Part shown: in pieces, positions 16,514-50,088 of the stretch
Layout of the letters: each line of letters opens with the position of its first letter
How positions within the stretch are numbered: position 1 is the stretch's first letter
DNA from: a virus
Direction: 5' to 3' (one strand)
Length of the DNA: 64,000 bases
Virus record (IMG/VR): IMGVR_UViG_3300048929_000741
Span: 14,351-78,350 of that record
Notes under the pieces: generated by a model
Databases searched by the model: none
What the model saw: only the letters and a program-made list of their open reading frames with translations
Told to the model about the DNA's origin: nothing
Position numbers and translations under genes: made by a program

Positions 16514-16574
16514 TAATAAAATGAAAAAAATGCATATCCAAATTAAAAAGTAAGGAAATGTTTGGGGGGATAAT

Positions 16575-17340: not shown

Positions 17341-17508
17341 TGTTTATGATTCAAGGACTGACGGTTGTTGGCACTTTTTTGGTATAATAAGATTTGAATT
17401 CTTTGGGTATTCCTATTGACATTGATAAATAAAAAAATATATATTACCAATAGATATCTAATATTAAACTCTATAATTTATATTGGAATAATACTGGGGG
17501 AGATAAGG

Positions 17509-18057: not shown

Positions 18058-18570
18058 TTAATAAAATTTGCTTTCCTCCTGGTCATTAAAAGTTTGTTAA
18101 TAATTGTCGTTTATAAACAAAAGAAAAGCCCTGCATCATTTGCAAGGCTGAACCTCTCCGACATGCCGATTGGGGGCAGCTATGTCGGTAGCTGTTATAA
18201 TACAAATAGCACAAATAAAATTTCTTGTCAAGGGTTGATTTGAAATTTATTTTATGCTAATCTGAAAAAGCCGAGGGGGCTCTACAAGAAATACTCAAGG
18301 GTATATCTTCCGGACATTGAGAATTTATCATGGTGATTAAATCAGGCAGGCAGAAGAGCAGATAAAGCTTTGAAGCCTGCTTTTTGTATTCAAAAATATG
18401 CATTTTTAAGCCCTATATATTATAAAATATATATAGACATATTAGTTTATTAATAATATACTCTTAGGCTTTCTGTATCCCCTGAGGTAAGTATAATAAC
18501 TATATAGGGGGATATAAAAAACTTTATACCAGATATTGACAGAATATTAAATATCTGCTAGAGTGTAAAT

Positions 18571-18709
18571 AATTAAATATTAAAGCGTGTATATGCTAGC
18601 CTGGTTGGTCTTGACCATATACTACGTCCCCGTAATAGGCGGGAAAGAACCAATGACTTCCAGTCCTTGTGTTGTACGGTATTCACTCCGTATAGCGCAG
18701 GGACTTTTT
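18571..18709 (+). ncRNA. Putative ~140-nt small RNA
   Basis: TTGACA(18536)-17-TAGAGT with extended TG; strong terminator 18662-18709; no ORF with RBS seen. Confidence 0.45.
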
Positions 18710-18875
18710 ATTTGCCCGTAAATCGATTTGACATTGACAGGTGAGAAAATGTCCACGAAAGACATTTAAAACGGCGCACGGGGCAAAATTAAGCGTTAAA
18801 ATGGGTTTTAAATCTATTAGTCATAGCACAGATAGAACAGAAACAGATAGAATCTAAAATCAAGGAGTTGATAAC

Positions 18876-19046
18876 ATGCAGGGAATAAGTGATAAGTGTG
18901 GCCGGGAAAGCTGCAGGTTTCAGGACACTGGGAAATGTACGAATACGGAGCAGCGGGATGAATGTCTGAAACTGCTGAATCAAATCATTCCTGATCCAGA
19001 AGACCGGATAACTTTGGCATTATCAGATCAGGTAGTTAAAGATTAA
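18876..19046 (+). CDS. Small Cys-containing phage protein (56 aa)
   Basis: AAGGAG RBS; C-x4-C-x6-C...C. Confidence 0.5.
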   Translation: MQGISDKCGRESCRFQDTGKCTNTEQRDECLKLLNQIIPDPEDRITLALSDQVVKD

Positions 19047-19814: not shown

Positions 19815-20393
19815 TTAAATCAAGAATAGATTTTTTTGAATAGCTTCTTCAATTTGCTTCGGTTGAATGCCAATGTATCGCTGAGTAACAGCAGCACTTG
19901 AGTGTTGCAGGAGTTGCCGAACAAGCTCAATATTGTATCCATTGTCATTGTAAAGGTTGGTCGCGTAGAATTTGCGGAAGCTGTGGGAACCAATATTATC
20001 AAGGCTTAGAGCCTCGCAGACCAGTTTTAAATGCTTTTGAATGGCTCTTTCGCTGATATCAAACAGTTTCGCACGACTGGATATGTTATTATCAAGCGCA
20101 TATTGCAAGATGTAATTATACAGCTCGACCGGCACAGTAAAGTTTCTTTCCTTTTTGGTTTTCCCCTCTGTGATATTAAGGCGATACCGTTCGCCATCTT
20201 TGATAATGTCACATGCGTGGAGCTGCAGCACATCACCAATACGTAAGCCCAGGTTGGCTTCCAGTACTAAGGCAGTAGCGATCCGGTTGTTCGGCTTACA
20301 GGCGGTACCGTCCTTGGCTATGAACCCAGATCGGATAGTGTCAATGATAAGCTGATATGATTCGCGGGTTAGTGTCACGGTTTTTTTATTCAT
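19815..20393 (-). CDS. Catalytic-domain-only tyrosine recombinase (resolvase-like)
   Basis: LGLRIGD, HSFRK, LQH, TQRY; ATG 20393 after AAGGAGG. Confidence 0.88.
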   Translation of the reverse strand: MNKKTVTLTRESYQLIIDTIRSGFIAKDGTACKPNNRIATALVLEANLGLRIGDVLQLHACDIIKDGERYRLNITEGKTKKERNFTVPVELYNYILQYALDNNISSRAKLFDISERAIQKHLKLVCEALSLDNIGSHSFRKFYATNLYNDNGYNIELVRQLLQHSSAAVTQRYIGIQPKQIEEAIQKNLFLI

Positions 20394-20409
20394 TCTATAC
20401 TCCTCCTTG

Positions 20410-20521
20410 AAAGTTCGTAAAATACTTCTGAAAAGTTCGTATAATCTATTAACACCATCATACCACACGATAAAACCATTGTAAATACGTAATAGTTCGT
20501 TTGCTAACCATTTTACGAACT
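20410..20521. repeat. AGTTCGT direct and inverted repeats upstream of the small recombinase
   Basis: AAAGTTCGTA at 20410 and 20432, AGTTCGT at 20494, inverted ATTTTACGAACT 20510-20521. Confidence 0.6.
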
Positions 20522-21875: not shown

Positions 21876-22856
21876 TTAGTTTAGCCGAATATTACATTTA
21901 GTCGTATAATCATTTATTTCAAGATATGCATAAAAAGAAGAACCCGCTTTATTTATTTGATATCTTTGGTATGCACTACCTGTAACCTTATTTAAGTCAA
22001 CAATGTTTAATGATAATAATAACGGGCAAATATTTTTCCTTACAAAATCGATTTCTGGTAATGATTTATTATTGGCCGTTTTAATACTAATTAACCCCGT
22101 ACATAACTTTCCAAAAAAAGCAATAAATATATCTAAAAAAGACGCATTAATATTTCCATCTGTAGTGGGTAGATCATAATATTTACTATTCATTAAATTG
22201 ATGAGTTCTGGATAAGGTATTCCGTTTATTGATTGAGTAGTATTCTTGTTTATTTTTAGTTTTTCGTTTTCTTTAACTAATTTCAGGTTTTCTGCAGCTA
22301 ACGTAGTGTTATTTTTTAAGAGTTTAGTTAATTCTTGATTACCAGTATCTTTAATCCAACCGGATAATTTGTATGTGCTTTGAAATTCACTTAGAGTTGT
22401 GAGAACAGCAATTTTAATATCCTTACAATCTTCTACTGGACGAATTACTTTACTCATGACATATTTTTTAAATGATTGATACTTCCCAGGCTCAATTTGC
22501 TCTATTGTGTTAGATAAGCCTAAAATTGCAGCTTTTTCTGTCAGCCAACTTTCTTTTATTAGAACTGCAAATACAGGGATTTTCTTCTTGATAGCATAGC
22601 GGTATTCGAGTTCAGTATAACTTAAACCAGAATTTATTTCTATGGAACCATATCGTCCACCAAGAATTAACATATATACATCTGATTCATCAATCCATTT
22701 ATATATTGTATTTAATTGTGACTGATTGCCAGCTTTGAATAATTCCATGCCTGCAGGAATATGACCAGCATCAAGGATCGCTTGTACGGCAGCCTGTCTT
22801 TCTTCTATCAGATCAGTATATGTTGAAGATACAAAAACCTGTAATTTTTTATCCAT
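21876..22856 (-). CDS. DUF4062-domain protein (moron, defence candidate)
   Basis: QVFVSSTYTDL.EER, GMELF, GGRYGS, SYTELEY. Confidence 0.85.
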   Translation of the reverse strand: MDKKLQVFVSSTYTDLIEERQAAVQAILDAGHIPAGMELFKAGNQSQLNTIYKWIDESDVYMLILGGRYGSIEINSGLSYTELEYRYAIKKKIPVFAVLIKESWLTEKAAILGLSNTIEQIEPGKYQSFKKYVMSKVIRPVEDCKDIKIAVLTTLSEFQSTYKLSGWIKDTGNQELTKLLKNNTTLAAENLKLVKENEKLKINKNTTQSINGIPYPELINLMNSKYYDLPTTDGNINASFLDIFIAFFGKLCTGLISIKTANNKSLPEIDFVRKNICPLLLSLNIVDLNKVTGSAYQRYQINKAGSSFYAYLEINDYTTKCNIRLN

Positions 22857-27573: not shown

Positions 27574-27656
27574 TTAAATTTAATCGTCTGATTTAAATAT
27601 AGAGCCTTATGAGCCTTCAGACCTTTGTTAAACACAAGGGAAAGGAGGCTTTTTCT

Positions 27657-29372
27657 ATGGATTTCCATGGACACCGGGAAATAATCAAAAAATTAAAGCG
27701 GCAGATTGAAGCGCCGCCGTCTTACGACATTCTAAATATTCTACTATCAGAACTCCAATATACAATGCAAGATAATCCAGATCTGCCGGTTGAGGATAGG
27801 GACTTCATCATGGCCTATTCCGGGTTTATCAAAAAATGGGCTGTTACAAGATTCGTTCAGACCATGGACACCAGATGGGATGATCTCTACTGGAAGACTT
27901 TACATTTTGAAGCTCCTTTCCTTTTTGAATCATTTTTGATTTATATGGAAAAAGATCGGAAGGCAGATAAACGGTTTTATCTCCCACGGCGCAACACGCT
28001 AAAAGTGGTTGCCGATGATCTTCAGGATCTAGAAGATAATAAACTTGACTTCTACGGTCTCTCAATGCCCTCTCGAGTCGGAAAGAGTACTATCTGTATT
28101 TTCTTCATGGCCTGGATTATTGGAAAGCGGCCAGACAGCCATAATGCCATGGGCGGCCACTCCGGGAAGCTGGCAAAGGGTTTCTATGGTGAGGCCATAA
28201 ATCTTATAAACACAAAGGAATATACCTTTGCGGAGATATTTCCAGATTCTAAGTTACAGAAGACAAGTGCAGAGGATTTTGAAATCAACCTGGGCGAGCC
28301 AGATCGCTTCGCCAGTCTTACATGTCGTGGTATTGATGGAACATGGACCGGAGCTGTTGATATATCTGCAGATGGCTATCTTTATGTAGATGACCTTATT
28401 CGTGACCGTGAGCATTCTTTGAACCCAATCCGTATGGAAAATACCTATCAAGAGTACCTAAACAAGATGGTTGACCGTAAAAATGATGGGGCCAGGGAAC
28501 TAATGGTGGGGACCAGGTGGTCCATTTTAGATTGTTTGGGAAGAATCGAAAAAGAAAATTCTCATAACCCACGATATAGGTTTAGAAAAATACCAGCATT
28601 AAACGAAGATGATGAATCAAACTTTCAGTACGAAATAAAAGGATTTTCAACAAAATATTATCGTGACATGAAGGATAGGCTAGACAAAAACGAATGGGAA
28701 GCAAAATACCAACAACGGCCATTTATTCGTGAAGGATTGTTGTTTCCAGAAGATGAACTTCGATTCTTTTATGGAATATTACCGGAGAGTGGGTTTATTC
28801 GTGTTGTGACGGCAGGTGATGTGGCATGGGGCGGCGGAGATAGTTTCTCCATGCCTATTGGTTTTGAATATGAGAACGGTGATGTCTATATTGTAGACTG
28901 GGTATTTAACAAAGGGGTAAAAGAGATTACCATACCGATTGTTGAAGGAAAAATCGTAGGAAATAAAATTCAGCAGATAAATTTTGAAGCAAACAATGGT
29001 GGTGAGATGTACGCCAAATATGTGAATGATGATTTAATTCGTCAAGGATATAAATGTTCTATAACATCAACTAAAGCCCCATCAACTATGGCAAAGCTGG
29101 CAAAAATTATTCAGTATTCTGGGGATATTAAGAGACGGTTTATTTTCCTGGCACCAAACTCCTTGATAAAAAGACATGCAGAGAATGATCTACCAGATAT
29201 AAAGCGATATATGCGTACCAGGGAATACGATGATGCAATGGAAGAACTTACGTTATTTGTTCAAATTGGCAAGAATGAGCATGATGACAGCCCGGACAGC
29301 TTGAGTCAGCTGGAAAGATTCTTAGAAGGTGGTTTTACTGCAGAAGTGAAACCTATGAAACGACCATTTTAG
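27657..29372 (+). CDS. terL: Terminase large subunit
   Basis: SMPSRVGKS Walker A, YVDDL Walker B, GTRW, YQQRP, FEANNGG, HDDSPD nuclease motif. Confidence 0.93.
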   Translation: MDFHGHREIIKKLKRQIEAPPSYDILNILLSELQYTMQDNPDLPVEDRDFIMAYSGFIKKWAVTRFVQTMDTRWDDLYWKTLHFEAPFLFESFLIYMEKDRKADKRFYLPRRNTLKVVADDLQDLEDNKLDFYGLSMPSRVGKSTICIFFMAWIIGKRPDSHNAMGGHSGKLAKGFYGEAINLINTKEYTFAEIFPDSKLQKTSAEDFEINLGEPDRFASLTCRGIDGTWTGAVDISADGYLYVDDLIRDREHSLNPIRMENTYQEYLNKMVDRKNDGARELMVGTRWSILDCLGRIEKENSHNPRYRFRKIPALNEDDESNFQYEIKGFSTKYYRDMKDRLDKNEWEAKYQQRPFIREGLLFPEDELRFFYGILPESGFIRVVTAGDVAWGGGDSFSMPIGFEYENGDVYIVDWVFNKGVKEITIPIVEGKIVGNKIQQINFEANNGGEMYAKYVNDDLIRQGYKCSITSTKAPSTMAKLAKIIQYSGDIKRRFIFLAPNSLIKRHAENDLPDIKRYMRTREYDDAMEELTLFVQIGKNEHDDSPDSLSQLERFLEGGFTAEVKPMKRPF

Positions 29373-31164: not shown

Positions 31165-32190
31165 TTAACTAGAGAGATTATTCTCTAAATTATACATTTC
31201 TATCTTTTTCCACCAGTTATCTAAATCAGATGTTAGGTAATCGATTTCCATTTTATTATAAATCTCATCAAGGCGTTTCATTAATGATTCGTTAGAATGA
31301 ATAAAGGTGCATATTTGACAAATTGTATCAATTTCAGAAAAATTGATTAATTCCTTAAACAGACTTTGATCTTCTTCTTTTATTAATTCGTATAGTTTTC
31401 CAAATCCAATGTCTTTAGCTATGCGTAAATGAAAACTAAAATAGAGATTAGATATTATTTTATTTATTTCATCTTTATATACGTTTCCGCAACTTAGTTT
31501 AGCATCTTTACTAAAACCACCAGCGCAACAAGGATATACTTCACCATCTGGATAAATTGATAAACTATAAAAAAAAGGCTGACCACATGTGCTCTTTTTC
31601 TTTACAATATAACTATATCTTTTTTTTTGGTGAAAGAATTCCGCAGCCCTACCTGTGGGCATTACGAGATTGTTTCTTTCTATAACACTTTTATTAAGTT
31701 TTATTAAATCATCTAAAGTTTCATTTTCATTCCAGAAAGTTCCTGATACTTCAATTTTAATTCCATTTTTTTGTGCGTATTTAACAATTCTTAATATTGA
31801 TTTTACCGATACGTACTTAGCATGTTCATAATCATAAGAGAGGCTTATTTCATCTATTCCTAGTAATTTTAGAATATTTAATACATATTCCACCTTATCA
31901 TCTTCAGTGGCCCAGAAGCCAGAAGTTACAATTCTAAAAGGTTGTGTCACATTATTCTCTCGAATTATTTTAAGTGCTTTAATTATATCGTCAATATACA
32001 GAAATGGTTCACCACCAGTTATAACAAATCTTTCTACTTCTTGAAAATTAGAAAATTTAATAACAAGTTCAATCAAATTTTGGGTAGTAAACTCATTCTC
32101 TCCTATCACAGATTTAGGATTACCACAGAAATTGCATTTTAATGGGCATCTATATGTGTAGTTAAATCCAACTAAGATATGATTTTTCAT
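31165..32190 (-). CDS. Radical SAM enzyme resembling YydG/EpeE peptide epimerase
   Basis: CPLKCNFC, TGGEPF, SGFWA, SYD..H..V, DGEVYPCC, ICQIC. Confidence 0.8.
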   Translation of the reverse strand: MKNHILVGFNYTYRCPLKCNFCGNPKSVIGENEFTTQNLIELVIKFSNFQEVERFVITGGEPFLYIDDIIKALKIIRENNVTQPFRIVTSGFWATEDDKVEYVLNILKLLGIDEISLSYDYEHAKYVSVKSILRIVKYAQKNGIKIEVSGTFWNENETLDDLIKLNKSVIERNNLVMPTGRAAEFFHQKKRYSYIVKKKSTCGQPFFYSLSIYPDGEVYPCCAGGFSKDAKLSCGNVYKDEINKIISNLYFSFHLRIAKDIGFGKLYELIKEEDQSLFKELINFSEIDTICQICTFIHSNESLMKRLDEIYNKMEIDYLTSDLDNWWKKIEMYNLENNLSS

Positions 32191-38738: not shown

Positions 38739-39857
38739 ATGGGATATCAACCTTTTCATGTTCTAAGAAACTGGCTGAATTTACCTTCTCAAAAGACTCC
38801 TATTAATGCATTGAGTCTAAACTATATGGATAATGGCATTAAGGAATTGGACAACAGAACTGTCCAGTTAGATGCAAATAAAGCAGAGAAATCATCACTA
38901 AATACTTTGGTTAAAGATGTAACGCTGGATACAAACACAGGAATACTTACCGTTACTTTACAGAATGGTACCGTAAAAACATACGATCTGGACATTGAGA
39001 AAGTAGTTACTAACTTTGATATAAACGATCAAAATCAGCTTGTATTAACTCTGGCAGATGGAACACAGAAAGTGATTGATCTGACACGGTTCGTTTATTC
39101 CGTGGAAAGCACTGCCACGATTTCCATGACAATCACTGACCGGGTCATGAGGGCGGTTATTGTAGATGGATCTGTGACTATGGATAAACTTGAGGCAGCC
39201 ATTCAGACAGAATTTAGACAGTATTTGCTTGACGCTCAGTCGGCCCGTGATGCCGCACTCAATTATCAGAAGTTTGCAAAGCGGTATACTTTGGGTGACC
39301 CGGATTTTCCGGGAAGCGAGAATGATTGCGCGAAGTTTTATTATGAACAGGTAAAGGGGGATTCCGCTACCTCCAGCCAGAATGCTCAGCAGGCCGCAGA
39401 CAGCGCAGCAGTATCAACCACACAGGCGGGAATCGCTACTACTAAGGCGGCAACGGCCACTGCAGCAGCAAATCAGACAGCGGCAGATGTTTTAACCACA
39501 ACTCAGAAAGCAGCGGCAGCTGGCGCCAGCGAGCAGGTGGCAAGGGATAAGGCAGCGGAGGCAGTATCAAGCCAGACGGCAGCGGGGCAGAGCGCAACAG
39601 CGGCACAGGCCAGTGCATTAGAAGCTAAAAGCCTTACCCGTGGAGGAGTTGTCCCAGAAGACGCTGAGGACAATGCAAGATGGTACTGGCAGCAGGTGCA
39701 GGATCTAAAGAAGCAGATTGACCAAGCGGCTAAAATATCAATACCACAATTTTATGTTGATATGAGTAAAATGCAACTTAAGAGCAATACGGCAGCAAAG
39801 GGTATTAGTTTTAGAATGGAAGCAGGTAAATTTATTGGAAAGGAGATCATGCAATAA
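38739..39857 (+). CDS. Tail fibre/baseplate structural protein (Ala-rich)
   Basis: TPINA..LN.MD.GI N-terminus, Ala/Ser/Gln-rich repeats, DNARWY. Confidence 0.75.
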   Translation: MGYQPFHVLRNWLNLPSQKTPINALSLNYMDNGIKELDNRTVQLDANKAEKSSLNTLVKDVTLDTNTGILTVTLQNGTVKTYDLDIEKVVTNFDINDQNQLVLTLADGTQKVIDLTRFVYSVESTATISMTITDRVMRAVIVDGSVTMDKLEAAIQTEFRQYLLDAQSARDAALNYQKFAKRYTLGDPDFPGSENDCAKFYYEQVKGDSATSSQNAQQAADSAAVSTTQAGIATTKAATATAAANQTAADVLTTTQKAAAAGASEQVARDKAAEAVSSQTAAGQSATAAQASALEAKSLTRGGVVPEDAEDNARWYWQQVQDLKKQIDQAAKISIPQFYVDMSKMQLKSNTAAKGISFRMEAGKFIGKEIMQ

Positions 39858-40819
39858 TGATTGAATCAGATGAAGTTATATATGGAACGATAGGAATGCT
39901 TCCTGATGGGGAGTTTGATCCTGATAAAAAGTATGAGCTGTTAAATTTAGTATCCTATGATGGTAGCAGTTATGTGGTACACACTGATCCGCCTAAGGGT
40001 ACTCCGCCGACTGATTTAAACTACTGGCAAGTATCAGCACTGGGAACCAGCAAGGCCACGGCTGACAGCGTGGGTACAGTTAAGCCAGACGGCACAACAA
40101 CGGAGGTAAGTACTGACGGCAGTCTGAGCGTAAAGACAGCCACGCAGAACACCCTGGGGCTGGTAAAGGGCAGTAATGGAATTACGGTAGGATCTGATGG
40201 GAGCATCGATATAAACACGCTCTTCACGCAAGCTACGGAGTTGGCCAACATCATAGCAGGGGAAGCTATTGCTTCTGTATTTGGGAAAGTAGCTAAATCC
40301 ATAGCTGTAACAATGGGATTGAATGAAAATGCCCTGCTTAAGAATATGCTGACCAACATGGATGCAAATGATCAGAATAAGGTCCCAACGTCAGCATTTG
40401 TGCATACCCTCTGGGCGCGGATCGGCATGGGTGAAGATCTGGATATCGGTGCGAATTTGACCGCAGTGGTTAAAGCGCTAAATAGCAATTTAAGTAACAC
40501 ATCAAGTGTAACTGTTACAGCCCCTAGCGGGTTTGGAGGCACGGTAAATGTGGAATTAATAAAAACTGGTAATCAAGTTGATTGCCGAATAACGGTAAAT
40601 AACAGCGGTGATATTCCGTCAGTAACTGCAATCACTAATGTCATTACTGAAGCTTACCGCCCTAAAACACAAGTATTTATTGTGCTAAGAAAAAACAATT
40701 CAGACAGCACCGCAGCCGTTATGTATTCGAACACTATAAATGCAATTAGATCAACCGATCAACCAATTTCCGCTGGGACTTGGTATGGCTTCGCACATTG
40801 GTCTACTGCAACTTACTAA
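39857..40819 (+). CDS. Tail fibre / receptor-binding protein with switchable C-terminus
   Basis: Y..L..VSY.GSSYV N-domain, G.VK.DG repeats, LNSNL crossover, RBP head-like 'I.EAYRP'. Confidence 0.8.
   Translation: MIESDEVIYGTIGMLPDGEFDPDKKYELLNLVSYDGSSYVVHTDPPKGTPPTDLNYWQVSALGTSKATADSVGTVKPDGTTTEVSTDGSLSVKTATQNTLGLVKGSNGITVGSDGSIDINTLFTQATELANIIAGEAIASVFGKVAKSIAVTMGLNENALLKNMLTNMDANDQNKVPTSAFVHTLWARIGMGEDLDIGANLTAVVKALNSNLSNTSSVTVTAPSGFGGTVNVELIKTGNQVDCRITVNNSGDIPSVTAITNVITEAYRPKTQVFIVLRKNNSDSTAAVMYSNTINAIRSTDQPISAGTWYGFAHWSTATY
40479..40493 (+). repeat. Crossover site A (TAAATAGCAATTTAA) in expressed fibre gene
   Basis: Perfect inverted copies at 41205-41219 and 48865-48879. Confidence 0.85.
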
Positions 40820-40830
40820 ATGATCATTTA
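40817..40830. repeat. Palindromic cassette-end site TAAATGATCATTTA
   Basis: 14-bp palindrome supplying TAA stops to both converging frames; 12-bp core repeated at 48590-48601. Confidence 0.8.
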
Positions 40831-41220
40831 TTCAAGTGGAATAACTAAGTAATCTATGTAAGCGTATCTGTTGTCAGAACTAGCGTATATCGTTGTAGCC
40901 CAGTTACTACTTGATCCCACCGTGATGGTAAATTGTTTACCTGCATCGGCAATTTTTACCACCTGTGGAGTAAAAAGACGACGGACATCTGAGACTAAAT
41001 CCACGAAAGCATAATGACAGTTATCAAAGAAAAACTCAACAGCTCCGTTTGTGTTTCTGGAAAATTCCATAGATCCTAATGCTACTACAATAGATTTTTG
41101 AGGTACAGTATAGCTCAACTCAGTTATTGGCTCCCAATTGGTATTATTAAATATTTTGTTGGATTGTATTGTTTTCCTCACAGTATAAGCTGATTTTATC
41201 TTATTTAAATTGCTATTTAA
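40828..41220 (-). other. Silent alternative fibre C-terminal cassette 2
   Basis: Begins LNSNLNKIKS.. at site B in the same codon register; beta-rich ~130 aa. Confidence 0.8.
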
Positions 41221-41222
41221 CG
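41202..41222 (-). repeat. Crossover site B
   Basis: TATTTAAATTGCTATTTAA identical to 48862-48880. Confidence 0.85.
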
Positions 41223-41263
41223 TAGAACCGGAGCTGTCCGAAAAAACAGCAGAAAGGGAAATT

Positions 41264-41425
41264 ATGATACAAATAATTGTAACATGTATAATAACAGCAA
41301 TTATAACTTCTCTATTAACGACAAAAATATTAGCCACCTACTATTTTAAAATAATAGATGGCTATGTAAGTAATATGGTTGAAATGTCAAAAGATTTATT
41401 ACGGACAACATATTTGAAGAAATGA
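41264..41425 (+). CDS. Small membrane protein (53 aa)
   Basis: Hydrophobic N-terminus; AAGGG RBS. Confidence 0.5.
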   Translation: MIQIIVTCIITAIITSLLTTKILATYYFKIIDGYVSNMVEMSKDLLRTTYLKK

Positions 41426-42193
41426 AATACCTAAGGAGGTTAATTGAATAACACGTTTTTCTAATTTTAAATTAGGATTAGGATGTATTGATGTATAATT
41501 ATTTAAAAATTCTTCATATACATCATATGCATTTGGCTGTTCGAGATATTGATTATACAAACTTTCTATTAATCCAAGTCTGGTTAAAGAGGAAATGGAT
41601 TGAGATGATTCTTGCATTTTAGTACAATCTGGATTCATTAAAAAAAGATTGGTAATTACATAACTATAAGTGGGCTTTTCGGACTTAATTAACTTAACAT
41701 CGCAAACTGGTAGATATCTTTTGTCCTGTAACAATAATAAGTTTTGTGCGTCTAAAGTCGACATCGTTTTTAATAGTTCTCCAAATGAAGGGTGTACTAA
41801 ATCACTTTTACGGTTATCAATAGAAGCAGAAATCAAATTAGAGAACATTTCTCTTAATTCGTCTTCTTCAACACAGTATTTTGAATTTTCTAATGCTGGC
41901 ATAATCGTTTGGATTTTACCCTCAATACGATTTTCTTCTGGTATTTTAGCAATTTTATCTTCTAATGATTTTTTGAAGATTTCTAAATCAAGTGCATATT
42001 TGATTTTTCGCTTTTCTGCCATTTGAGAGATTCCACCGAAAACTAAGTACCAGCAGTCGGCTAAAGTTTGTCCTGCATTTTTAGTTGGTAAATCCGTTAG
42101 GTTCTTAGCGGCATTATCAACCGAATCGGGAACTTCTACATTTAATAAAGAAAAATTATTTGTTGTTTCTGACATATTAACACGACCTTTCAA
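41399..42193 (-). CDS. DUF4393 / Abi-alpha-like protein
   Basis: PALE.SKY..E..LREMF.NLI..S.D, VHPSF...L..MS..DA, L.RLGLI, LT.LG..F. Confidence 0.75.
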   Translation of the reverse strand: MKGRVNMSETTNNFSLLNVEVPDSVDNAAKNLTDLPTKNAGQTLADCWYLVFGGISQMAEKRKIKYALDLEIFKKSLEDKIAKIPEENRIEGKIQTIMPALENSKYCVEEDELREMFSNLISASIDNRKSDLVHPSFGELLKTMSTLDAQNLLLLQDKRYLPVCDVKLIKSEKPTYSYVITNLFLMNPDCTKMQESSQSISSLTRLGLIESLYNQYLEQPNAYDVYEEFLNNYTSIHPNPNLKLEKRVIQLTSLGISFLQICCP

Positions 42194-42262
42194 TTTGATA
42201 ATAATATCTTATCAGATTGTGAAGAAATAACAATGATTTTGTAGGAAATGTTGTTATGAATT

Positions 42263-42275
42263 TTGCTATTTAACG
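42263..42275 (-). repeat. Crossover site C (TTGCTATTTAACG)
   Basis: 13-bp direct repeat of 41210-41222. Confidence 0.7.
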
Positions 42276-42349
42276 AACTAAATAAACTTGTAAACCAGTC
42301 CCGTACCGGGTCTTATTTTTATGCCCAAGAGGCGGAAAGGAATTTAATC

Positions 42350-42775
42350 ATGAGTAATATTGAAAAAATAAAGTTTGGGGATCAGCCTTTTGATCTGGTT
42401 CCTAACGGGGTGAAACTGGAAGAAACCGGAGGAACAATAACCTTTCAGAAAGGACCGGCCTCCTTTGACAGCATCAAGGCGCTTTTAAAAGCCAATGGTG
42501 AAATCGCTCAGACAGGTTTGTCTGGCAATACTGTTTGGGTTCGTGAAGATTTGGTATATGCAAAAAGATTAACAGAAGAGTCTGATTATGTGATCGGTAA
42601 GGATGAGGACGGAGTAACGGATATCAAGGCGGATGTAATGATTGCCTATTTTAAGACTCCTGATCTGAATGATCGGGTAGCAGCATTGGAAGCAGAGAAT
42701 GCGGAAATTAAAAAGGATAATGAATCCTTAAAAACAACCGTTGGTACTTTAGTTTTATCAAGTCTGGAGGTGTAA
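42350..42775 (+). CDS. Tail-associated protein (XkdW-like position)
   Basis: C-terminal coiled coil; precedes XkdX-like gene. Confidence 0.55.
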   Translation: MSNIEKIKFGDQPFDLVPNGVKLEETGGTITFQKGPASFDSIKALLKANGEIAQTGLSGNTVWVREDLVYAKRLTEESDYVIGKDEDGVTDIKADVMIAYFKTPDLNDRVAALEAENAEIKKDNESLKTTVGTLVLSSLEV

Positions 42776-42777
42776 GT

Positions 42778-42909
42778 ATGTTTGAAATGTTAATGTGGCT
42801 ATATGATGGTGGCAAAGGTAAACTTACGGTCACTATGTTATCAAATGCAGTAATTAAGGGCTGGATCACTGATACAGAAAAGCAGGAGATATTGGCAACT
42901 AAAAAATAA
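42778..42909 (+). CDS. XkdX-like small protein
   Basis: AV.KGWIT..EK.EI motif; GGAGG RBS. Confidence 0.7.
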   Translation: MFEMLMWLYDGGKGKLTVTMLSNAVIKGWITDTEKQEILATKK

Positions 42910-42927
42910 TGAAACGGAGGTGCCGCC

Positions 42928-43242
42928 ATGACAGAAACGGAGGTTGCCGTTAAATTGGAAGCGCATGAGCATGAAATTAAATCATTAAAACATCGGATGG
43001 AAGATCAGGAGGCACAGAGTAAGACAATCCAGGAACTGGTTTTGTCAGTTAAAGAACTGGCTCTAAATATGCAGGCCATGTTAAAAGAGCAGGGAAGCCA
43101 AGGAGAAAGACTGGCAAAGCTTGAAGCTGCACCCGGAGAAGCGTGGAGTAGCATGAAACGTACAATCATTAATACAATAGTAGGGGCAGGAGCCGGAGCA
43201 CTTGCTACCGGGATATTTTATATTATAGCTCAAAATTTATAA
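42928..43242 (+). CDS. XhlA-like lysis-module membrane protein
   Basis: Coiled coil plus C-terminal TM helix before holin. Confidence 0.65.
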   Translation: MTETEVAVKLEAHEHEIKSLKHRMEDQEAQSKTIQELVLSVKELALNMQAMLKEQGSQGERLAKLEAAPGEAWSSMKRTIINTIVGAGAGALATGIFYIIAQNL

Positions 43243-43255
43243 GGAGGGAAAAGGA

Positions 43256-43456
43256 ATGAACAAAGAATATTTAGTAAAATGGGGTAAGGCTGCAGGAATC
43301 AGGGCAATTAAAACTATGGCACAAACCGCTATAGCCACAATAGGCACCACAGCAGCAATGTCAGAAGTTAACTGGGTTATGGTAACTTCTACTGCTGGAT
43401 TGGCAGGTATCATATCGGTTCTAACATCATTAGCCGGTTTACCTGAATTAAAATAG
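43256..43456 (+). CDS. Holin (r1t-like)
   Basis: KAAGIRAIKTMAQTA...SVLTSLAGLPE. Confidence 0.88.
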   Translation: MNKEYLVKWGKAAGIRAIKTMAQTAIATIGTTAAMSEVNWVMVTSTAGLAGIISVLTSLAGLPELK

Positions 43457-43499
43457 CTTGTTGCGACCGTCGCAACGGTTGTAATGTTACAATTTTTAT

Positions 43500-43527
43500 G
43501 GACCTGGGACAATCCTGGGTCCTTTTT
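43500..43527 (+). terminator. Hairpin with U-tract between holin and endolysin
   Basis: GGACCTGGGA-CAA-TCCTGGGTCC-TTTTT. Confidence 0.5.
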
Positions 43528-43544
43528 CGATTGGAGGAAAATAT

Positions 43545-44312
43545 ATGCAGATCAATAAATTACTTACACCCTATAACTACAGCAATGGCGAATTGAACCG
43601 TATTAAATATATCGTAATTCATTATGTGGGAGCGCTGGGAGGAGCAGAGGCTAACTGTAGATACTATGCTTCACAGTATGTTGGTGCCAGTGCTCACTAC
43701 TTTGTAGGCTTTTCCGGAGGAATCTGGCAGTCCGTTGAAGACAAAAATATTGCATGGCATTGCGGAGCCAAAACCTATATCCATCCTGAATGTCGCAACA
43801 GCAACAGCATTGGCATTGAGCTGTGTGTCAGAAACAAAGGCAGCCAGTCCGATACCAGCCGGGACTGGTATTTTGAAGATGCAACAGTTCAGGCAGCCAT
43901 TGAATTAACCAAAGATCTCATGGCGAAGTATAACGTACCTGCAGATCGTGTAATCCGGCATTATGATGTGACTGGGAAGATCTGTCCGAACCCTTATGTC
44001 TATAATCATACGCAGCACACATGGGAGGATTTTAAGGCAGCACTGGTGAAAATACCAACTGAATATACTAAGGGCTGGAACCATGATAAAAATGGCTGGT
44101 GGTATGCTGATACGAAAATTACTTACCATAAATTTTGTTGGCAGATAATCAATGGCCATAAGTACTATTTTAATCCGGACGGATACGCTGTTACCGGTTG
44201 GCAGGAGATAGATGGTAAATGGTATTACTTTGAGCCCAGAGCCGGCCATAACCTGGAGTGTGCGCTGTATGTATCAGATCAGGAAGGAGCGCAGCGTATT
44301 GGTGAGTTTTGA
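43545..44312 (+). CDS. Endolysin, N-acetylmuramoyl-L-alanine amidase (Amidase_2) with cell-wall-binding repeats
   Basis: IVIHY, SAHYFV, AWHCG, SIGIELC, RHYDVTGK.CP; WYYF repeats. Confidence 0.92.
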   Translation: MQINKLLTPYNYSNGELNRIKYIVIHYVGALGGAEANCRYYASQYVGASAHYFVGFSGGIWQSVEDKNIAWHCGAKTYIHPECRNSNSIGIELCVRNKGSQSDTSRDWYFEDATVQAAIELTKDLMAKYNVPADRVIRHYDVTGKICPNPYVYNHTQHTWEDFKAALVKIPTEYTKGWNHDKNGWWYADTKITYHKFCWQIINGHKYYFNPDGYAVTGWQEIDGKWYYFEPRAGHNLECALYVSDQEGAQRIGEF

Positions 44313-44555
44313 GATTAGTGAAATAGTGCTATATTTGTTTGGCAAGGTTACCAATTGCCCAGGTTGATATAAGATGATAATATGAATGCATTCTAAAACA
44401 TAAATCAAATGCTGAAATCCCAGAATACTATAATCGATTATATTAAAAATTTACAAGTCATATGTTACATTCTAATGGCTTTCTTTTCTGCACTTATTTA
44501 TTGCTTAGAATGATAATACAACAATTACAAAAGATAAATTTTGGAGGTATATTGT

Positions 44556-46151
44556 ATGAAAAAGAGAGCATTGCTAAGATTGGCAACGAGTATTTGTTTT
44601 ATGTTTTGTATAATGGTTTTAGGGCAATTCACTACTATGGCTGATGAGGTTGAACCTACATGGATAACATTAACTTCAATGTCTACTGGTAGATCTGACT
44701 TTCAAATGGAAGTAATAAATGGTAAAATTTATGCTATGGGTGGGATTGATAATGGTGTTATTAATAATTCAACAGAGGTATATGATCCAAGTACAAATCA
44801 ATGGGAACCATTAGCTTCGATGTCAACAGCCAGGTATTCATTTCAAACAGAAGTAATAGATGGAAAAATTTATGCTATTGGTGGAGTGATTAAAAATAGT
44901 TCAAGAACTAATTCAATAGAGGTTTATGACCCGGCTACTAATAAATGGACAACATTAGCTTCAATGTCTACAGGTAGGTCTGATTTCCAAACGGAAGTAA
45001 TTAATGGCAAAATATATGCTATTGGTGGAACTACCAATAATAATGCTACCAATTCAACAGAGGTATATGATCCAATTACAAATCATTGGACGACACTAGC
45101 TTCTATGTCAATATCTAAGTGTAGATTTCAAACAGAAGTAATAGATGGAAAAATATATGTTATCGGTGGTTCTGATTTGAATAAAAATAAAACAACAGAA
45201 GTATATAATCCATCTACTAATCAATGGACAACACTAGCTTCTATGTCTATATGTAGGCAGAACTTTCAAACAGTAGTAATAGATGGAAAGATATATGCTA
45301 TGGGAGGACAAGGGCTAAATATTGATGGAGGATTTTTTGTATCAACAGAGGTATATGATCCAGCAATCAATCAATGGACAACATTGGCTTCTATGTCTAC
45401 TAGCAGGACAATGTTTCAAACAGAAGTAATAAATGGGAAAATATATGCTATAGGGGGTTGCGATGCCACTACTCACAAAAATTCAACAGAGACATATGAT
45501 CCATCTACTAATCAATGGACAACATTAGTTTCAATGTCTAAAGATAGGCAAAGATTTCAAACAAAAGTAATTGATAGAAAAATTTATGCTGTTGGTGGTG
45601 ATAGTAATTCCTCTGTGGAAGTATATACAATTCCAGAAACACTATCAAACCTTAAAGCTATTGGCGGAGATTCCAGAGTAGACTTAACCTGGAATCCTGT
45701 AACCGATGCAACAAGCTACACCGTTAAGCGCTTCACGACTGCAGGAGGCCCATATACAACAATAGCGACAGGTATAACAGGAACTACCTATACAGACACG
45801 GGCGTTACTAATGGTACTACATACTATTACGTTGTAACTGCAATCGTAAATGGGAGTGAAAGTTGGAGTTCTAACGAAGCCTCAGCAACTCCACAAGCTT
45901 CCACTAATCCAAATCAGCCAACCGGAAACAAGGCTCTTCTTGTGATCTCAATGGTTACTGGCGAACGTAAAGAATATGAAATGACCACTGATAAAATTAA
46001 CGATTTCATTGCATGGTATAACAGCAAGGCAGCTTCCAGCCCAACCTATGTTATTGAAAAGGAGTATAACAAAGCTTCGTTTACAGCTCGAAAAGATTAT
46101 ATTTCTTACGAACAGATTTCAAACTTTGAGGTGAATGAATATAACAATTAA
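44556..46151 (+). CDS. Secreted Kelch-repeat beta-propeller + fibronectin type III protein (moron)
   Basis: Signal peptide; ~6 repeats GKIYA.GG..EVYDP.TN.W; FnIII LTW..V..ATSY.V.R ... YYYVVTA. Confidence 0.88.
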   Translation: MKKRALLRLATSICFMFCIMVLGQFTTMADEVEPTWITLTSMSTGRSDFQMEVINGKIYAMGGIDNGVINNSTEVYDPSTNQWEPLASMSTARYSFQTEVIDGKIYAIGGVIKNSSRTNSIEVYDPATNKWTTLASMSTGRSDFQTEVINGKIYAIGGTTNNNATNSTEVYDPITNHWTTLASMSISKCRFQTEVIDGKIYVIGGSDLNKNKTTEVYNPSTNQWTTLASMSICRQNFQTVVIDGKIYAMGGQGLNIDGGFFVSTEVYDPAINQWTTLASMSTSRTMFQTEVINGKIYAIGGCDATTHKNSTETYDPSTNQWTTLVSMSKDRQRFQTKVIDRKIYAVGGDSNSSVEVYTIPETLSNLKAIGGDSRVDLTWNPVTDATSYTVKRFTTAGGPYTTIATGITGTTYTDTGVTNGTTYYYVVTAIVNGSESWSSNEASATPQASTNPNQPTGNKALLVISMVTGERKEYEMTTDKINDFIAWYNSKAASSPTYVIEKEYNKASFTARKDYISYEQISNFEVNEYNN

Positions 46152-46264
46152 TGAAGACTAAATACAGGCGGGTATCTGGTATACGAACCCGCCCTTAAAA
46201 ATACTTTCCATATTTGATCCATCGTGGTATTATAGTAATGTAGAGTGGCAGAAAGGATAGCCAT

Positions 46265-46447
46265 ATGAATATAAATGATAATACACTTAAAGCAATCAAT
46301 GTAATTCCTTATAATGGAAAATCAATAAATCTTAATGATCTGTGCATGTCCTACACAAATTTCCAACCAAATCAAGTGTTAGAAGCAGCAGTACATGGAG
46401 ATATGATAGTTATAACAACAGCTATAAAAAACAATCTAACTAGTTAA
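46265..46447 (+). CDS. Small hypothetical protein
   Basis: AAGGA RBS. Confidence 0.4.
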   Translation: MNINDNTLKAINVIPYNGKSINLNDLCMSYTNFQPNQVLEAAVHGDMIVITTAIKNNLTS

Positions 46448-46822
46448 AATTTTAAATGTCGCTCTACTCCCGTTGAAATAAGCCTATAAGTATTACTGTA
46501 TTCGCTGTTTGCATAACGCTGAAGCTGCATTAATCACTTTCTGGTTCCTACGGTAAAAGGAAAGGTCCTGCTGCCGTTAATGGAACTCAGTTCCGCTATA
46601 CAGTTATAGCAAAATCCTCCGGTTTTGTAGTTGGCAAACCTACAATCGAATGACATAGGAGATTTTTTGCTTGATGCTGATGCTATTTGGAAATACACCT
46701 GCATAGCAGAAGGTTTATTTTCTCTATTCTATAATTTAGAATCCCGGACATTCTATAAATACCTTCATAGAATCTCCGGGATTTTGTAAACTTTTAGGAC
46801 AAAAATTAAGCTTTAGATTAAA

Positions 46823-47533
46823 TTAAAAGTTATCATAATAAGATAATCCAAAATTACTTATGTTATAATTCTTTCCATGAACAATGCCAACACCATATCT
46901 AATAGCTTCTCTTCTTTCCTGACCGTCAGCACTTATTACATAAGTATGTATTGCCGTTAAAATATCTGGATCACCAGCCCAAGCCGATCCTTTTGCTAAT
47001 TTATAGCCGGCAATAGATGATAGCATATCAGACTTAGAAACGCTAAATGACCATTCGTGTACAGACTGATCAAAGAGATATGCCAATCCCTGTGTGGTTG
47101 TGATTCCAAAATCACTTGCATAATTTAATGCATGATTAAAATAATCTTCTGCATGACTGATTTGAAGAGAAATACAGTAGGAATTTTTGCCTAATGCTTC
47201 AAAACATGCCTGCCAATCAGAAACTAATGCCCCTTTTGGTGTAGAAATACTATCCCCCCAAGCTACCTGTTTAGAGGTTGAAATTTTTAACATATCTTTT
47301 ACAGATTTAGCTTTAGTTGCACCGAAAATGCTTGTAAAATCTGTATTATGTGATGCAATAAATTCTTTAAGTAACGGCTGTAGTGTTTCTTGTCCTAAAT
47401 TATACTGGATAATACCAAATGACATACCTTGACCATCAGCATTTCCAGTAACATTTGAGTATCCGTTATTGCCTTCAAAAAATCCTGTATTTGATAATAA
47501 TTTTTTCTTAAGACTTAAAGTAATGCTCTTCAT
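46823..47533 (-). CDS. Putative lysozyme/chitosanase-fold glycoside hydrolase
   Basis: FEG...Y....GN.DGQG.SFG.IQ.N motif; GGAGG RBS. Confidence 0.55.
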   Translation of the reverse strand: MKSITLSLKKKLLSNTGFFEGNNGYSNVTGNADGQGMSFGIIQYNLGQETLQPLLKEFIASHNTDFTSIFGATKAKSVKDMLKISTSKQVAWGDSISTPKGALVSDWQACFEALGKNSYCISLQISHAEDYFNHALNYASDFGITTTQGLAYLFDQSVHEWSFSVSKSDMLSSIAGYKLAKGSAWAGDPDILTAIHTYVISADGQERREAIRYGVGIVHGKNYNISNFGLSYYDNF

Positions 47534-47738
47534 ATATTAATCCTCCATATTTTTATTGTAATTAAAAATTTATCATGAGGGGAATTACAAGATGGAAATA
47601 ACATTCCCTATTATTCCATGCTTGTCTCACTGGAATTTTTGATTACACTATATAAAAATAAATTTTTTTATTTTTAGCAACTAAATTTATATTATTTTAT
47701 ATTTATTTAAAAAGTATCATAACTTAAAAGGTTATGGT

Positions 47739-48000
47739 ACTCTCAGACTGTAGACAAAATCCCGGGCTACCGCCCGGGATTTTTCTTTGAAAAGTTTCTA
47801 AAAGTTGAGTATAATAAGGACTTGAAGGCATTTTTCTGATATAATAGGAGTATCAAAATAAGGCGGTGATTCTACCTACTTATGATGACTCAAAATGCTA
47901 ATAAGAAAAGAGAACAGATTAGTTTATGTGTATGGATGATATGGTTACTCAGAATCATCTTCTTAGAATCATTGATAATGCAATTGATCGGAACTTTATA
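47739..48000 (+). mobile_element. IS1182-like remnant (left end and degenerate transposase start)
   Basis: CAGACTGTAGACAAA terminus; MMTQNANKKREQI../..MDDMVTQNHLLRIIDNAID fragments, frameshifted. Confidence 0.55.
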
Positions 48001-48042
48001 ATTGGAATAGGATATTGAACTTCAATGAGTATACGGTAACGT

Positions 48043-48174
48043 CTAAACTTTACAATCTATTGCCAGCTTATCATCTCTTATGCCTTTGAAAACAGGCTGC
48101 CTAAAGCTATCCTTTTCATTTAGACCGGTCTCAAGAAAAGTTAAGCATTCATTTTTTTCACAATTATTTAGCAT
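48043..48174 (-). pseudogene. 43-aa deletion fusion ending in an ATP-dependent DNA ligase-like C-terminus
   Basis: AAGGAG RBS; MLNNCEKNECLTFLETGL-NEKDSFRQPVFKGIRDDKLAIDCKV. Confidence 0.5.
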
Positions 48175-48245
48175 TTGTTTGACTCCTTAACAAAATATAG
48201 TAAAATTTGTCTTTCTGTAGTATATCATATTCTCTATCAAAAAAA

Positions 48246-48259
48246 CAAACATTTGTTCG
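48246..48259. promoter_or_regulatory. LexA (SOS) box
   Basis: CGAACAAATGTTTG on minus strand matches Firmicute consensus CGAACRNRYGTTYG; abuts site D. Confidence 0.7.
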
Positions 48260-48260
48260 A

Positions 48261-48555
48261 AAATAGCAATTTAGCACTAAAAGCAAATGCCAGCGATTTG
48301 GAGAGCAAAGCCGGACTCGGAACAAATAGTTATGATGGTGTACAGTCCATTATATATCCTTCCGGTATAGGCAATACATCATATACAAATGCCCAGGTTT
48401 TATCACGCGCACCATATTCGCAGAACCCAGGTGTACGCGCGATGTATGGATTTGAAAATGTTGGAAGTAACGCAGGCGCATTATATTTAGATACTGATGG
48501 ACGACTTAAATGGATAGCCCATGATGGTAATACAAAAGTAATTGATTGGACATAA
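48261..48555 (+). other. Silent alternative fibre C-terminal cassette 3 (starts at site D, AAATAGCAATTTA)
   Basis: NSNLALKANASDL.. in the same register; beta-rich end 'GALYLDTDGRLKW'. Confidence 0.75.
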
Positions 48556-48595
48556 ATACGCCCGTATCAAACAAAGGATTCTCTAATACAAATGA

Positions 48596-48880
48596 TCATT
48601 TTAATGAAATATTAACTCGAACATATCCGTAGTTTCCGGGCGCAGAACTAAACAATGAAGGATCATTGGTATAAATGCTAAAACTGTTGGGGCTCATGTG
48701 AATTTGCCACTTACTGTAGTCAACATCGTTATCTTGTACGTTAACTCCAGTAATGGTTACATTATACCTGGAACTATGAGGAAGCGATATTCCAGATGAA
48801 GAAGCATATCCACTGCTTCCACCTCCAAAAATAATAGGATATTCTATGTCAGTTCCAATAATATTTAAATTGCTATTTAA
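48596..48880 (-). other. Silent alternative fibre C-terminal cassette 4 (starts at site E)
   Basis: Hand translation: 94-aa open frame LNSNLNIIGTDIEYP...GYVRVNISLK, TGA inside AAATGATCATTT; absent from ORF track. Confidence 0.8.
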
Positions 48881-48984: not shown

Positions 48985-50088
48985 ATGTATAATCCTTTTT
49001 TATTATTTAATTTAAACTTACCTGGCGAACTTAAAAACATACCACAAAAAGAAGTAATCGAGGCTAAAAGAAAAGTTAACTCTCTTCTAAAAGATAGTAA
49101 AGCCCAAGCTAAATTAGGTAAGTGCTACTATTGCAATAATGATTATAATAGTTTTTGCAATTCTCATACAATACCTCAATTTTGCTTGAAGAATATAGCG
49201 ATAGATGGAAAAATATATTGCATGAATACAATAATAGAGTTACCTGTTATAAAAGATGAAAAAGGTATAAATGAAGCTGGGGTCTTTCATCTGATTTGTC
49301 GTGACTGTGATAGCAAAATTTTTAAAGATTATGAGAATCCGGAGAATTACAATGATGTTCCTACAATAAAAATGCTTGCACAAATTGATATGAAAAACAA
49401 CCTAAAAAACATTAGTAAGAGATTGATGGAAATAGAATTATACAAACTAATGGGGGAAAGATTATCGGTATCGAATGATTATGTAAGTTATAGAAATGAA
49501 ATTAATGAAATGGATTTAAAAGAATATCATGAAGCCTACTTGAACGCGAAGAAAGTAGATCTAAAACCCACAAATGGTGAATATTTTATTGGCTTTTATG
49601 AAGTACTTCCATATTTAGTCCCAGTGGCTTTTCAAGGCACCATTGCATTAGTTTCAGATCTTAATAACAATATCATCAATGATATATATAATTCTAATCC
49701 TGATTACATAATAAAAAACATATCATTATGTATATTTCCATTTAAAAGTTCAAGTTTAGTTATGCTATTTGTTGAAAAAAATAATCGTAGATTTAGTCGC
49801 TTTTTTAGACAGTTGAAGAAATTTAGTTTAGAAGAGCAATTAAGTATAATTAATTTTATCTTATTTTCTTATACTGAAGATTATTTTATATCACCATCTA
49901 TACCCAAAGACATTATGGAAAAATTAAGTGATGCATCTGGTAAAACTACTAATATGTTAGCAGATGCAAATACAACTAAATCCCAGCAACTTCAAGAAAT
50001 TATTGATAATTTTAATTATAATGAAAGAAATAAAATCCCTAATTTGTTATCTGAGCAATTTGCATTAATTGCTCAAAGAGATAATTAA
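48985..50088 (+). CDS. Moron protein with HNH-like Zn motif
   Basis: CYYC...NSHTIP...FHLICRDCD; very AT-rich. Confidence 0.6.
   Translation: MYNPFLLFNLNLPGELKNIPQKEVIEAKRKVNSLLKDSKAQAKLGKCYYCNNDYNSFCNSHTIPQFCLKNIAIDGKIYCMNTIIELPVIKDEKGINEAGVFHLICRDCDSKIFKDYENPENYNDVPTIKMLAQIDMKNNLKNISKRLMEIELYKLMGERLSVSNDYVSYRNEINEMDLKEYHEAYLNAKKVDLKPTNGEYFIGFYEVLPYLVPVAFQGTIALVSDLNNNIINDIYNSNPDYIIKNISLCIFPFKSSSLVMLFVEKNNRRFSRFFRQLKKFSLEEQLSIINFILFSYTEDYFISPSIPKDIMEKLSDASGKTTNMLADANTTKSQQLQEIIDNFNYNERNKIPNLLSEQFALIAQRDN

Follow-up and report, generated by a model that had tools for sequence, protein, structure and literature searches.

Fibre gene, repeated sites and cassettes

The DNA considered here, a stretch of 64,000 nucleotides (hereafter the window, to whose numbering all coordinates refer), is the final 64 kb of the provirus record IMGVR_UViG_3300048929_000741 of the IMG/VR database (record positions 14,351 to 78,350; total length 78,350 bp). 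The element is a temperate siphophage of Lachnospiraceae, of the Lacrimispora/Hungatella type, whose hosts are Lacrimispora-like gut/soil Clostridia; its relatives occur in Lacrimispora, Hungatella and allied Lachnospiraceae. The system of interest comprises a tail-fibre gene, a short repeated site and a set of alternative 3'-terminal coding cassettes. The fibre gene (39857-40819, +) encodes 320 amino acids (aa), shows a weak match to the virion structural protein family phrog_27494, and is preceded by the gene of a conserved 372-aa tail protein. Residues 1-212 form the constant N-terminal part of the fibre, and the expressed cassette 1 extends from 40478 to the stop codon. Within the gene, codons L208-L212 (LNSNL) constitute the candidate crossover site A (40479-40493, +), a 15-mer TAAATAGCAATTTAA that recurs as an exact inverted copy at B (41205-41219, -) and again exactly at E (48865-48879, -). 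These are the only three exact copies in the whole 78-kb record; B and E have 19 bp in common. A fourth site, D (48260-48274, +), carries two mismatches to the 15-mer, both at outer bases.

All four sites read (L/E)NSNL in one codon register, and each opens a different frame: KA-LNSNL-SNTSS at A, ST-LNSNL-NKIKS at B, F-ENSNL-ALKAN at D and SK-LNSNL-NIIGT at E, continuing from site to stop for 113, 130, 98 and 94 aa, respectively. The open frame upstream of the site spans 216 codons at A versus 39, 29 and 12 codons at B, D and E, only A being preceded by a gene. Silent cassette 2 (40828-41220, -) encodes 130 aa from LNSNL and has no start codon or upstream gene; site D with silent cassette 3 occupies 48259-48555 (+; 98 aa), and silent cassette 4 with the exact site E occupies 48596-48880 (-; 94 aa). 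We confirmed in these respects an earlier, sequence-only reading of the window, which had claimed exact sites at A, B and E, a variant at D, four frames of 94-130 aa in the same register and an upstream gene at A alone. Three silent spare tips thus arranged appear to be stored besides the expressed one, two of them 8 kb away past the lysis genes.

Conservation of the site and of a junction palindrome

The invariant 11-mer of the site, AATAGCAATTT, is present in five copies in the window against 0.21 expected, a number reached in none of 100 shuffles. The fifth copy (51057, in the portal gene) is not conserved in relatives and was set aside as a chance occurrence. The conserved element can be written TAAAT-AGCA-ATTTA, a 14-bp near-palindrome with 5-bp inverted arms about an asymmetric 4-bp centre, and the site sequence here is TAAATAGCAATTTA. 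Of 20 homologous fibre genes, 18-20 share the codons AAT AGC AAT TTA, whereas three to four synonymous codons are used in conserved Leu, Gly and Thr columns located slightly upstream. At silent sites the same 11-14 nucleotides (nt) are invariant, although no coding sequence lies upstream. The occurrence of the site far beyond chance, its single register and its invariance at the nucleotide level were together counted in favour of a recombination joint. The short site is common to at least three unrelated fibre N-termini (P0001 type, L021 type and BppU_N type; L, G and P numbers are our labels for related loci, genomes and proteins).

A second element lies where paired cassettes meet. Palindrome M1 (TAAATGATCATTTA, 40817-40830) is located at the tail-to-tail junction of cassettes 1 and 2 and includes both stop codons; M2 (AAATGATCATTT, 48590-48601) lies between cassettes 3 and 4 and carries the stop codon of cassette 4. 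The sequence AATGATCATT has two copies only in the window (0.26 expected), both between convergent cassettes, and in the 20-kb loci of nine relatives (L004, L007, L008, L010, L011, L038, L041, L042 and L043) it is found only at the tail-to-tail junction of a pair; the majority of pairs carry it there. Written as TAAAT-GATC-ATTTA, the palindrome has the same arms as the 5' site, about a symmetric centre.

Relatives of the fibre and its cassettes

Homologues of the fibre are encoded by nine viral and twelve bacterial contigs. Their similarity is limited to residues 1-212 to 1-225 and therefore stops at LNSNL: 20 homologues show 57-89% identity up to that motif and are unrelated beyond it. Relatives of the silent cassettes are found attached to other fibre N-termini. 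For cassette 2, relatives with 83% identity occur on two contigs of one metagenome, in one of which (L021) the cassette follows a different fibre N-terminus in frame (…DTANSNLNKIK…), while in the other (L022) DNA of the same type is silent after non-coding DNA beside the portal gene, that is, at the E position. The two cassettes are identical at 125 of 125 nt, and similarity between the contigs is lost just before the AAATAGC core, where the site begins. For cassette 4, the last 94 residues of P0004, a 314-aa protein with a BppU_N domain, match at 73% identity over 99% of the length and are joined at TSNSNL.

Cassette 3 has 96 relatives by exhaustive search of 1.84 billion representative proteins, many of them being C-termini of proteins of 185-834 aa; in P0007 a C-terminus of this type is joined at LNSNL (…SLNSNLNNKASL…). 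One silent cassette of the G015 prophage is 38% identical to cassette 3. A word-index search for longer relatives of cassette 3 was empty, and no close relatives of cassettes 3 and 4 were found in IMG/VR. An AlphaFold2 model of cassette 3 has a predicted local distance difference test score (pLDDT) of 88, and its best fold matches are C-terminal parts of phage tail-fibre proteins, with template modelling (TM) scores of 0.58-0.65 and E values of 0.02-0.3. Compared with the PDB by Foldseek, the model gave no match at E <= 0.001, and VIA-align gave Z < 4, phage fibre tips being merely top-listed, which assigns no fold. A prediction for the whole fibre was unusable (pLDDT 41).

The comparisons support the notion that the cassettes represent interchangeable fibre C-termini joined at a conserved site. 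This had been claimed from the window alone, and it is borne out by the end of homology at LNSNL and by the fusions found for relatives of cassette 2 (in L021), cassette 3 (P0007) and cassette 4 (P0004).

Rearrangements among relatives

Two relatives, L004 and L042, are collinear in the fibre N-terminus (77% identity) and in the flanks outside B. Between these, a 232-nt block that starts at the site and stops where the cassette ends is 84% identical but inverted; L004 expresses it at A, and L042 keeps it silent at B. Comparison of the two loci supports their interpretation as inversion isomers for one cassette. In addition, the silent cassette at the E position of L043 shows 49% identity over 109 aa to the expressed (A) cassette of L049.

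Pairs distal to the lysis genes recur in at least six relatives. A plus/minus site pair lies downstream of the lysis genes in L008, L010, L042 and L043; L007/L040 and L011 have a D-type distal site and L022 has one of E type. Site E of L010 and of L042 is located about 50 nt before the gene of a 66-aa protein. The distal pairs share with the proximal pair the order site, cassette, palindrome, cassette, site. By this comparison the distal pair past the lysis genes is a conserved feature of the family and not an accident of the window record. In the G015 prophage, four intact convergent pairs, amounting to eight cassettes, are spread over 19 kb of early and late genes, and all seven silent frames (76-106 codons) are open, as are the three silent cassettes of the window (94-130 codons).

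For the phage of the window itself, the available data were Logan contigs of three root-metagenome runs, and such contigs drop rare variants. One run yielded a contig across 39800-41488 in the orientation of the window. In runs X1 and X2, the segment 40479-41219 forms a separate contig of 741 nt with a depth of 30 versus 14-17 in the flanks (about twofold); contigs break exactly at 40479 and 41219, and alternative flanks are found at both ends of the segment. One of the alternative flanks belongs to a different fibre gene, in which the NSNL motif is doubled and the frame continues as …INSNLDNVNSNL into cassette 1. The second set of flanks and the full identity of the segment indicate that another locus, or another phage, has the identical cassette pair, the breakpoints of the exchange falling precisely on A and B.

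Site C and gene insertion at B

A partial copy of the site, C (42263-42275, -), agrees with the 15-mer at 10 of 15 bases and opens no cassette. Between the full site B and this half-site lies an inserted moron block (41220-42262), bracketed by a 13-bp direct repeat, TTGCTATTTAACG, and containing a small membrane open reading frame (ORF; 41264-41425, +) and an Abi_alpha gene (41399-42193, -; PF14337, E 2.6e-42). The sequence beyond C corresponds to that found outside B in L010, L044 and L011, all of which are devoid of the block and have B about 80 nt before the gene of a conserved 141-aa protein. From this match, C is the mark of a gene insertion at the site, consisting of the outer half of an ancestral B site and the original flank, and not a cassette site. 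Similar scars are present in L038, L042 and L004. The earlier view of C as a working site is thus withdrawn, and C was rejected as a crossover partner.

Gene neighbourhood

The genes separating the two cassette pairs (42350-44312, +) have the same order and orientation in all relatives. They begin with the conserved 141-aa protein, to which no family was matched and for which an XkdW-like role can be guessed from gene position alone, and a 43-aa ORF; these are followed by an XhlA-like protein (42928-43242, +), a holin-like ORF (43256-43456, +) and an amidase endolysin (43545-44312, +; PF01510, E 3e-30; phrog_937) with choline-binding repeats. Accessory genes occupy the region from the lysis genes to the distal pair (44541-47533). 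Directly 3' of the endolysin gene is that of a Kelch-repeat protein, a 536-aa beta-propeller (44541-46151, +), and a phrog_30036 protein is encoded at 46823-47533 (-). Kelch-like genes near fibre or lysis genes also occur in L007, L008 and L012. Just upstream of site D, at 47928-48174, lies debris comprising a piece on the plus strand, which presumably resembles the N-terminal fragment of an insertion sequence (IS)-type transposase, and a 43-aa minus-strand ORF ending in …FKGIRDDK, which may resemble the C-terminus of ATP-dependent DNA ligases. A scan for promoters and terminators over 38-50.5 kb performed no better than chance.

The D/E pair is followed by a 367-aa ORF and then by portal, capsid and tape-measure genes. 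This ORF (48985-50088), which has no match in Pfam, PHROG or NCBIfam, is inserted between site E and the 66-aa and portal genes. The late region (27609-64000) is permuted: the large terminase gene TerL (27609-29372) is followed by HNH and regulator genes, the tail-tip block (a 143-aa protein, a 658-aa tail protein and the fibre), the lysis genes and the D/E pair, with the portal, capsid and tape-measure genes coming after all of these. The usual order, seen in the 40-kb relatives G005 and G009, runs from TerL and portal to tape measure, a 135-aa protein, tail protein, fibre and lysis genes. In G015 the moved block is bracketed by cassette pairs. Two minus-strand morons of the window, 21876-22856 and 31165-32190, contain a DUF4062 gene and a radical-SAM/SPASM gene, and the intergenic positions they occupy are those at which the G015 prophage has two extra intact cassette pairs. 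In one related record, L009 (IMGVR_UViG_3300048919_000233, 10000-19032), two decayed minus-strand sites come after the fibre gene and are adjoined by tail-chaperone and tape-measure genes, with no lysis, portal or capsid genes intervening; the element is rearranged or defective, or else its sequence was joined at a site during assembly.

Candidate recombinase

Three tyrosine recombinases are encoded in the whole 78-kb record: an integrase at the left end, a 217-aa protein (19815-20468, -) and a 345-aa protein (11206-12243, +). No match to the serine recombinase family PF00239 was found in the record, while control genomes responded, and a Hin-family serine invertase was rejected on this ground. 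The 345-aa protein is an armless Xer-like tyrosine recombinase (PF00589, E 5.7e-32) whose gene overlaps that of a 124-aa phrog_36 regulator, the two spanning 11206-12605 as a candidate trans-acting invertase and its regulator. It resembles XerA/XerD in NCBIfam, below the cut-offs of those models, which it matches from residue 64-68 on, and its catalytic R, HxxR and Y residues align with those of P. abyssi XerA. It is the sole intact, full-length recombinase in the record other than the integrase. Orthologues 84-98% identical are present in G001/G013, G003, G004, G014, G015 and G018, and more distant homologues (34-40% identity) in G006 and G009, two site-bearing phages with another backbone. 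The recombinase of L040, a prophage of Lacrimispora xylanisolvens DSM 3808 that has an A/B pair and a distal site, is 98% identical. The gene is conserved in relatives with multiple pairs and is broken, as a pseudogene, in G016, where two of four cassettes have decayed. The 217-aa protein represents the catalytic part only and is 90% identical to one in G003; having its match in G003 alone among the records compared, it was regarded as the weaker candidate.

Discussion

By these comparisons the cassette system is real and family-wide, while its activity, its enzyme and the role of the distal store are inferred. The arrangement is, in our view, probably best explained as a shufflon-like host-range switch, in which tip cassettes joined at a common site would be selected by a local A x B switch, a distal reserve and an enzyme acting in trans. 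Because the same site precedes every tip, site-specific rearrangement probably enables the phage to change its target bacteria. In this scheme the constant part of the fibre would end in the LNSNL codons, themselves situated inside the 14-bp near-palindrome as the putative recombination site, and tip cassettes lacking promoters and starts would be stored as convergent pairs, A/B behind the gene and D/E 8 kb off, past the lysis genes. Conservative site-specific recombination between A and an inverted site, as suggested by the relatives, would fuse another tip in frame. A x B would be the simple local switch; the distal pair would serve as a reserve, reached by longer rearrangements or by a double exchange that also uses the palindrome at the 3' ends, the enzyme presumably acting in trans throughout.

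The palindrome at the 3' ends of the cassettes may then be a second crossover site, and the one observation that favours this is that the inverted homology block of L004 and L042 ends at the pair junction. If so, cassettes 1 and 4 would trade places through an A x E event and a subsequent M1 x M2 event, after which the lysis genes would again point as they did at the start. The sequence-only reading had derived use of the distal pair from two steps, A x E followed by C x D or by recombination at palindromic end sites. Conservation of D/E in the family was counted in favour of the switch as a whole; the C x D step falls away with the recognition of C as a scar, and fewer inversions may suffice if the palindrome crosses over. 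A broader scheme, which we consider unlikely, would have heterospecific 5' and 3' sites bracketing every cassette, with a trans-acting recombinase performing a natural form of recombinase-mediated cassette exchange between stores in the late region, and with the sites also receiving defence morons, of which the Abi_alpha block at B/C would be an example.

Several findings weigh against an active switch of this kind. Neither pair has a recombinase gene beside it: 28 kb separate A from the nearest one that is not an integrase, and the genes flanking both pairs encode Abi_alpha, the lysis proteins, the Kelch protein and unknowns. At E <= 1e-20, the host genomes G011, G017, G019, G020 and G021, whose prophages have the A/B pair only, with cassettes intact or largely intact, contain no homologue of the 345-aa protein; the 41-kb record G005 has an integrase-type recombinase only; and in L. 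sinapis a search of about 40 kb around the fibre gene yielded a single tyrosine recombinase, an integrase-like gene at a distance of 37 kb. In view of these five genomes and of L. sinapis, the proposal that the enzyme is the 345-aa armless Xer-like recombinase acting in trans is made tentatively, at slightly less than an even chance; otherwise a host recombinase, or one from a co-resident element, would be responsible. Cassettes have decayed in some relatives (L004, L008, L009 and L043). In none of six large-phage relatives is the lysis block inverted, its orientation always being that of the fibre gene, and the long-range A x E inversion must accordingly be rare, transient or not used. The suggestion that host-range switching is coupled to lysis finds no support in these genomes. 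Recombinant junctions joining the fibre N-terminus to cassette 2, 3 or 4, or placing cassette 1 or cassettes 2/4 in a foreign context, were absent, by exact search, from JGI metagenome contigs and IMG/VR; the fibre N-terminus used as a query had no match in the metagenome contigs. Finally, no inverted junction of this phage was present in the contigs of the three runs, all of which have the orientation of the window, because the data are contigs only; as contigs drop rare variants, the result neither supports nor refutes inversion. The A x B inversion claimed at the outset draws its support from the isomers L004 and L042 among relatives, and no alternative junction was seen for the phage of the window itself.

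These findings invite other explanations. Inversion might be confined to the A x B segment, D/E and the extra pairs forming an evolutionary reserve that is only rarely exchanged, at the conserved sites, between co-resident or co-infecting phages, with no programmed switch inside the genome. Clear inversion isomers are indeed known for the A/B pair alone, the constant orientation of the lysis block is in keeping with this account, and the appearance of 40479-41219 in a second fibre context at 100% identity in runs X1 and X2 is an exchange between loci. Yet the distal cassettes stay open and their sites exact, their anatomy is that of the proximal pair, and related types of cassette hold the E position in one phage but position A or B in another; we judge a purely local switch to be rather improbable. 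Less probable still is the view that recombination no longer takes place, the cassettes being remnants of past modular exchange and LNSNL a structural joint retained by the fibre. The lack of an adjacent invertase, the decayed cassettes just mentioned and the related LN(S/T)NL joints of unrelated fibres would all be expected of such fossils. Against them stands nucleotide-level invariance that extends to non-coding silent sites, together with the conservation of the junction palindrome and the openness of all silent frames, seven of seven in G015 (76-106 codons) and three of three here, each of which would be met by chance in AT-rich DNA at a frequency of about 1e-3 (a rough, uncomputed estimate). 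That the start-less frames are instead independent small genes, or chance frames beside coincidental repeats, can hardly be maintained. A GTG does occur 39 codons upstream of cassette 2, but no ribosome-binding site can be read from the sequence, the upstream open stretch varies from 1 to 84 codons among relatives, related sequences are found as C-termini of full-length fibres, and the repeat statistics (five copies of the 11-mer versus 0.21 expected) speak against coincidence.

The kind of switch proposed is already known; the present one is unusual in being scattered and in having no recombinase gene close by. The closest described system is the Rin shufflon of Bifidobacterium and Eggerthella lenta prophages (Mavrich et al. 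2018, PMC6109161; PMC8778435). There, a constant N-terminus of the receptor-binding protein is combined with alternative cassettes of about 95-100 aa, each following an 11-bp rix repeat, and an armless XerD-like tyrosine recombinase is proposed as the invertase, the main evidence being inversion isomers among relatives (PMC6109161). Both systems belong to temperate siphophages of Gram-positive hosts, with a constant N-terminus and a short repeat before each alternative cassette, and in both an armless Xer-like tyrosine recombinase is present in addition to an integrase (here the 345-aa protein and the separate integrase at the left end). Rin, in contrast, is one compact array flanked by the rin gene, whereas here convergent pairs extend across 8 kb (19 kb in G015) and are separated by lysis and other late genes, and the nearest non-integrase recombinase is remote. 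The sites are unrelated, the rix crossover site being TTCCCTAACCC (PMC6109161) as opposed to TAAATAGCAATTTA here, the host phylum differs, and the 3' site of the present system is a distinct palindrome. Co-occurrence with the candidate recombinase is only partial, extending to the multi-pair relatives and failing in the five host genomes that have A/B alone.

A second bifidophage locus, 689b-1 / Bb423phi2, provides a precedent for a 3'-end swap at a short repeat without an adjacent recombinase: inversion at an 8-bp repeat exchanges the 3' end of a gene against a small inverted segment, and an enzyme acting in trans has been proposed (PMC6109161). It differs in having a single pair and no distal store, and its genes are without assigned function. 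Gin of Mu, Cin of P1 and Min of p15B act at 26-bp sites with the aid of an enhancer. They select alternative fibre C-termini by inversion at the constant/variable joint, Min as a multi-site, multi-cassette system (PMC6109161). The likeness lies in the choice of fibre C-termini at a site on that joint; the difference is that a Hin-family serine invertase adjoins their segment, whereas no serine recombinase exists in the present record. In the R64 shufflon, multiple inversions among short asymmetric sfx sites exchange the C-termini of the PilV adhesin through the tyrosine recombinase Rci. Several short asymmetric sites, exchanged adhesin C-termini and a tyrosine recombinase (here a candidate only) are common to both; R64, however, concerns a plasmid pilus and not a phage fibre, its array is contiguous with rci adjacent, and the sites are unrelated.

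Switching of receptor-binding tips as a programmed event is well established in Mu/P1-type coliphages and, among Actinobacteria, in the Rin shufflon, and our literature searches found no description of it for phages of Clostridia. What is new in the present system is the dispersal of cassette stores among essential late genes, with no need of an adjacent recombinase, and a repertoire of up to eight tips per prophage, as well as the use of one short site by unrelated fibre N-termini. The second class of site and the scars left by morons raise the possibility that one recombination system may serve both tip exchange and gene capture. Should the system be active, LNSNL would offer a short, portable joint for the study of natural fibre-tip exchange, and these prophages would provide a testable model of host-range bet-hedging in the Lachnospiraceae.

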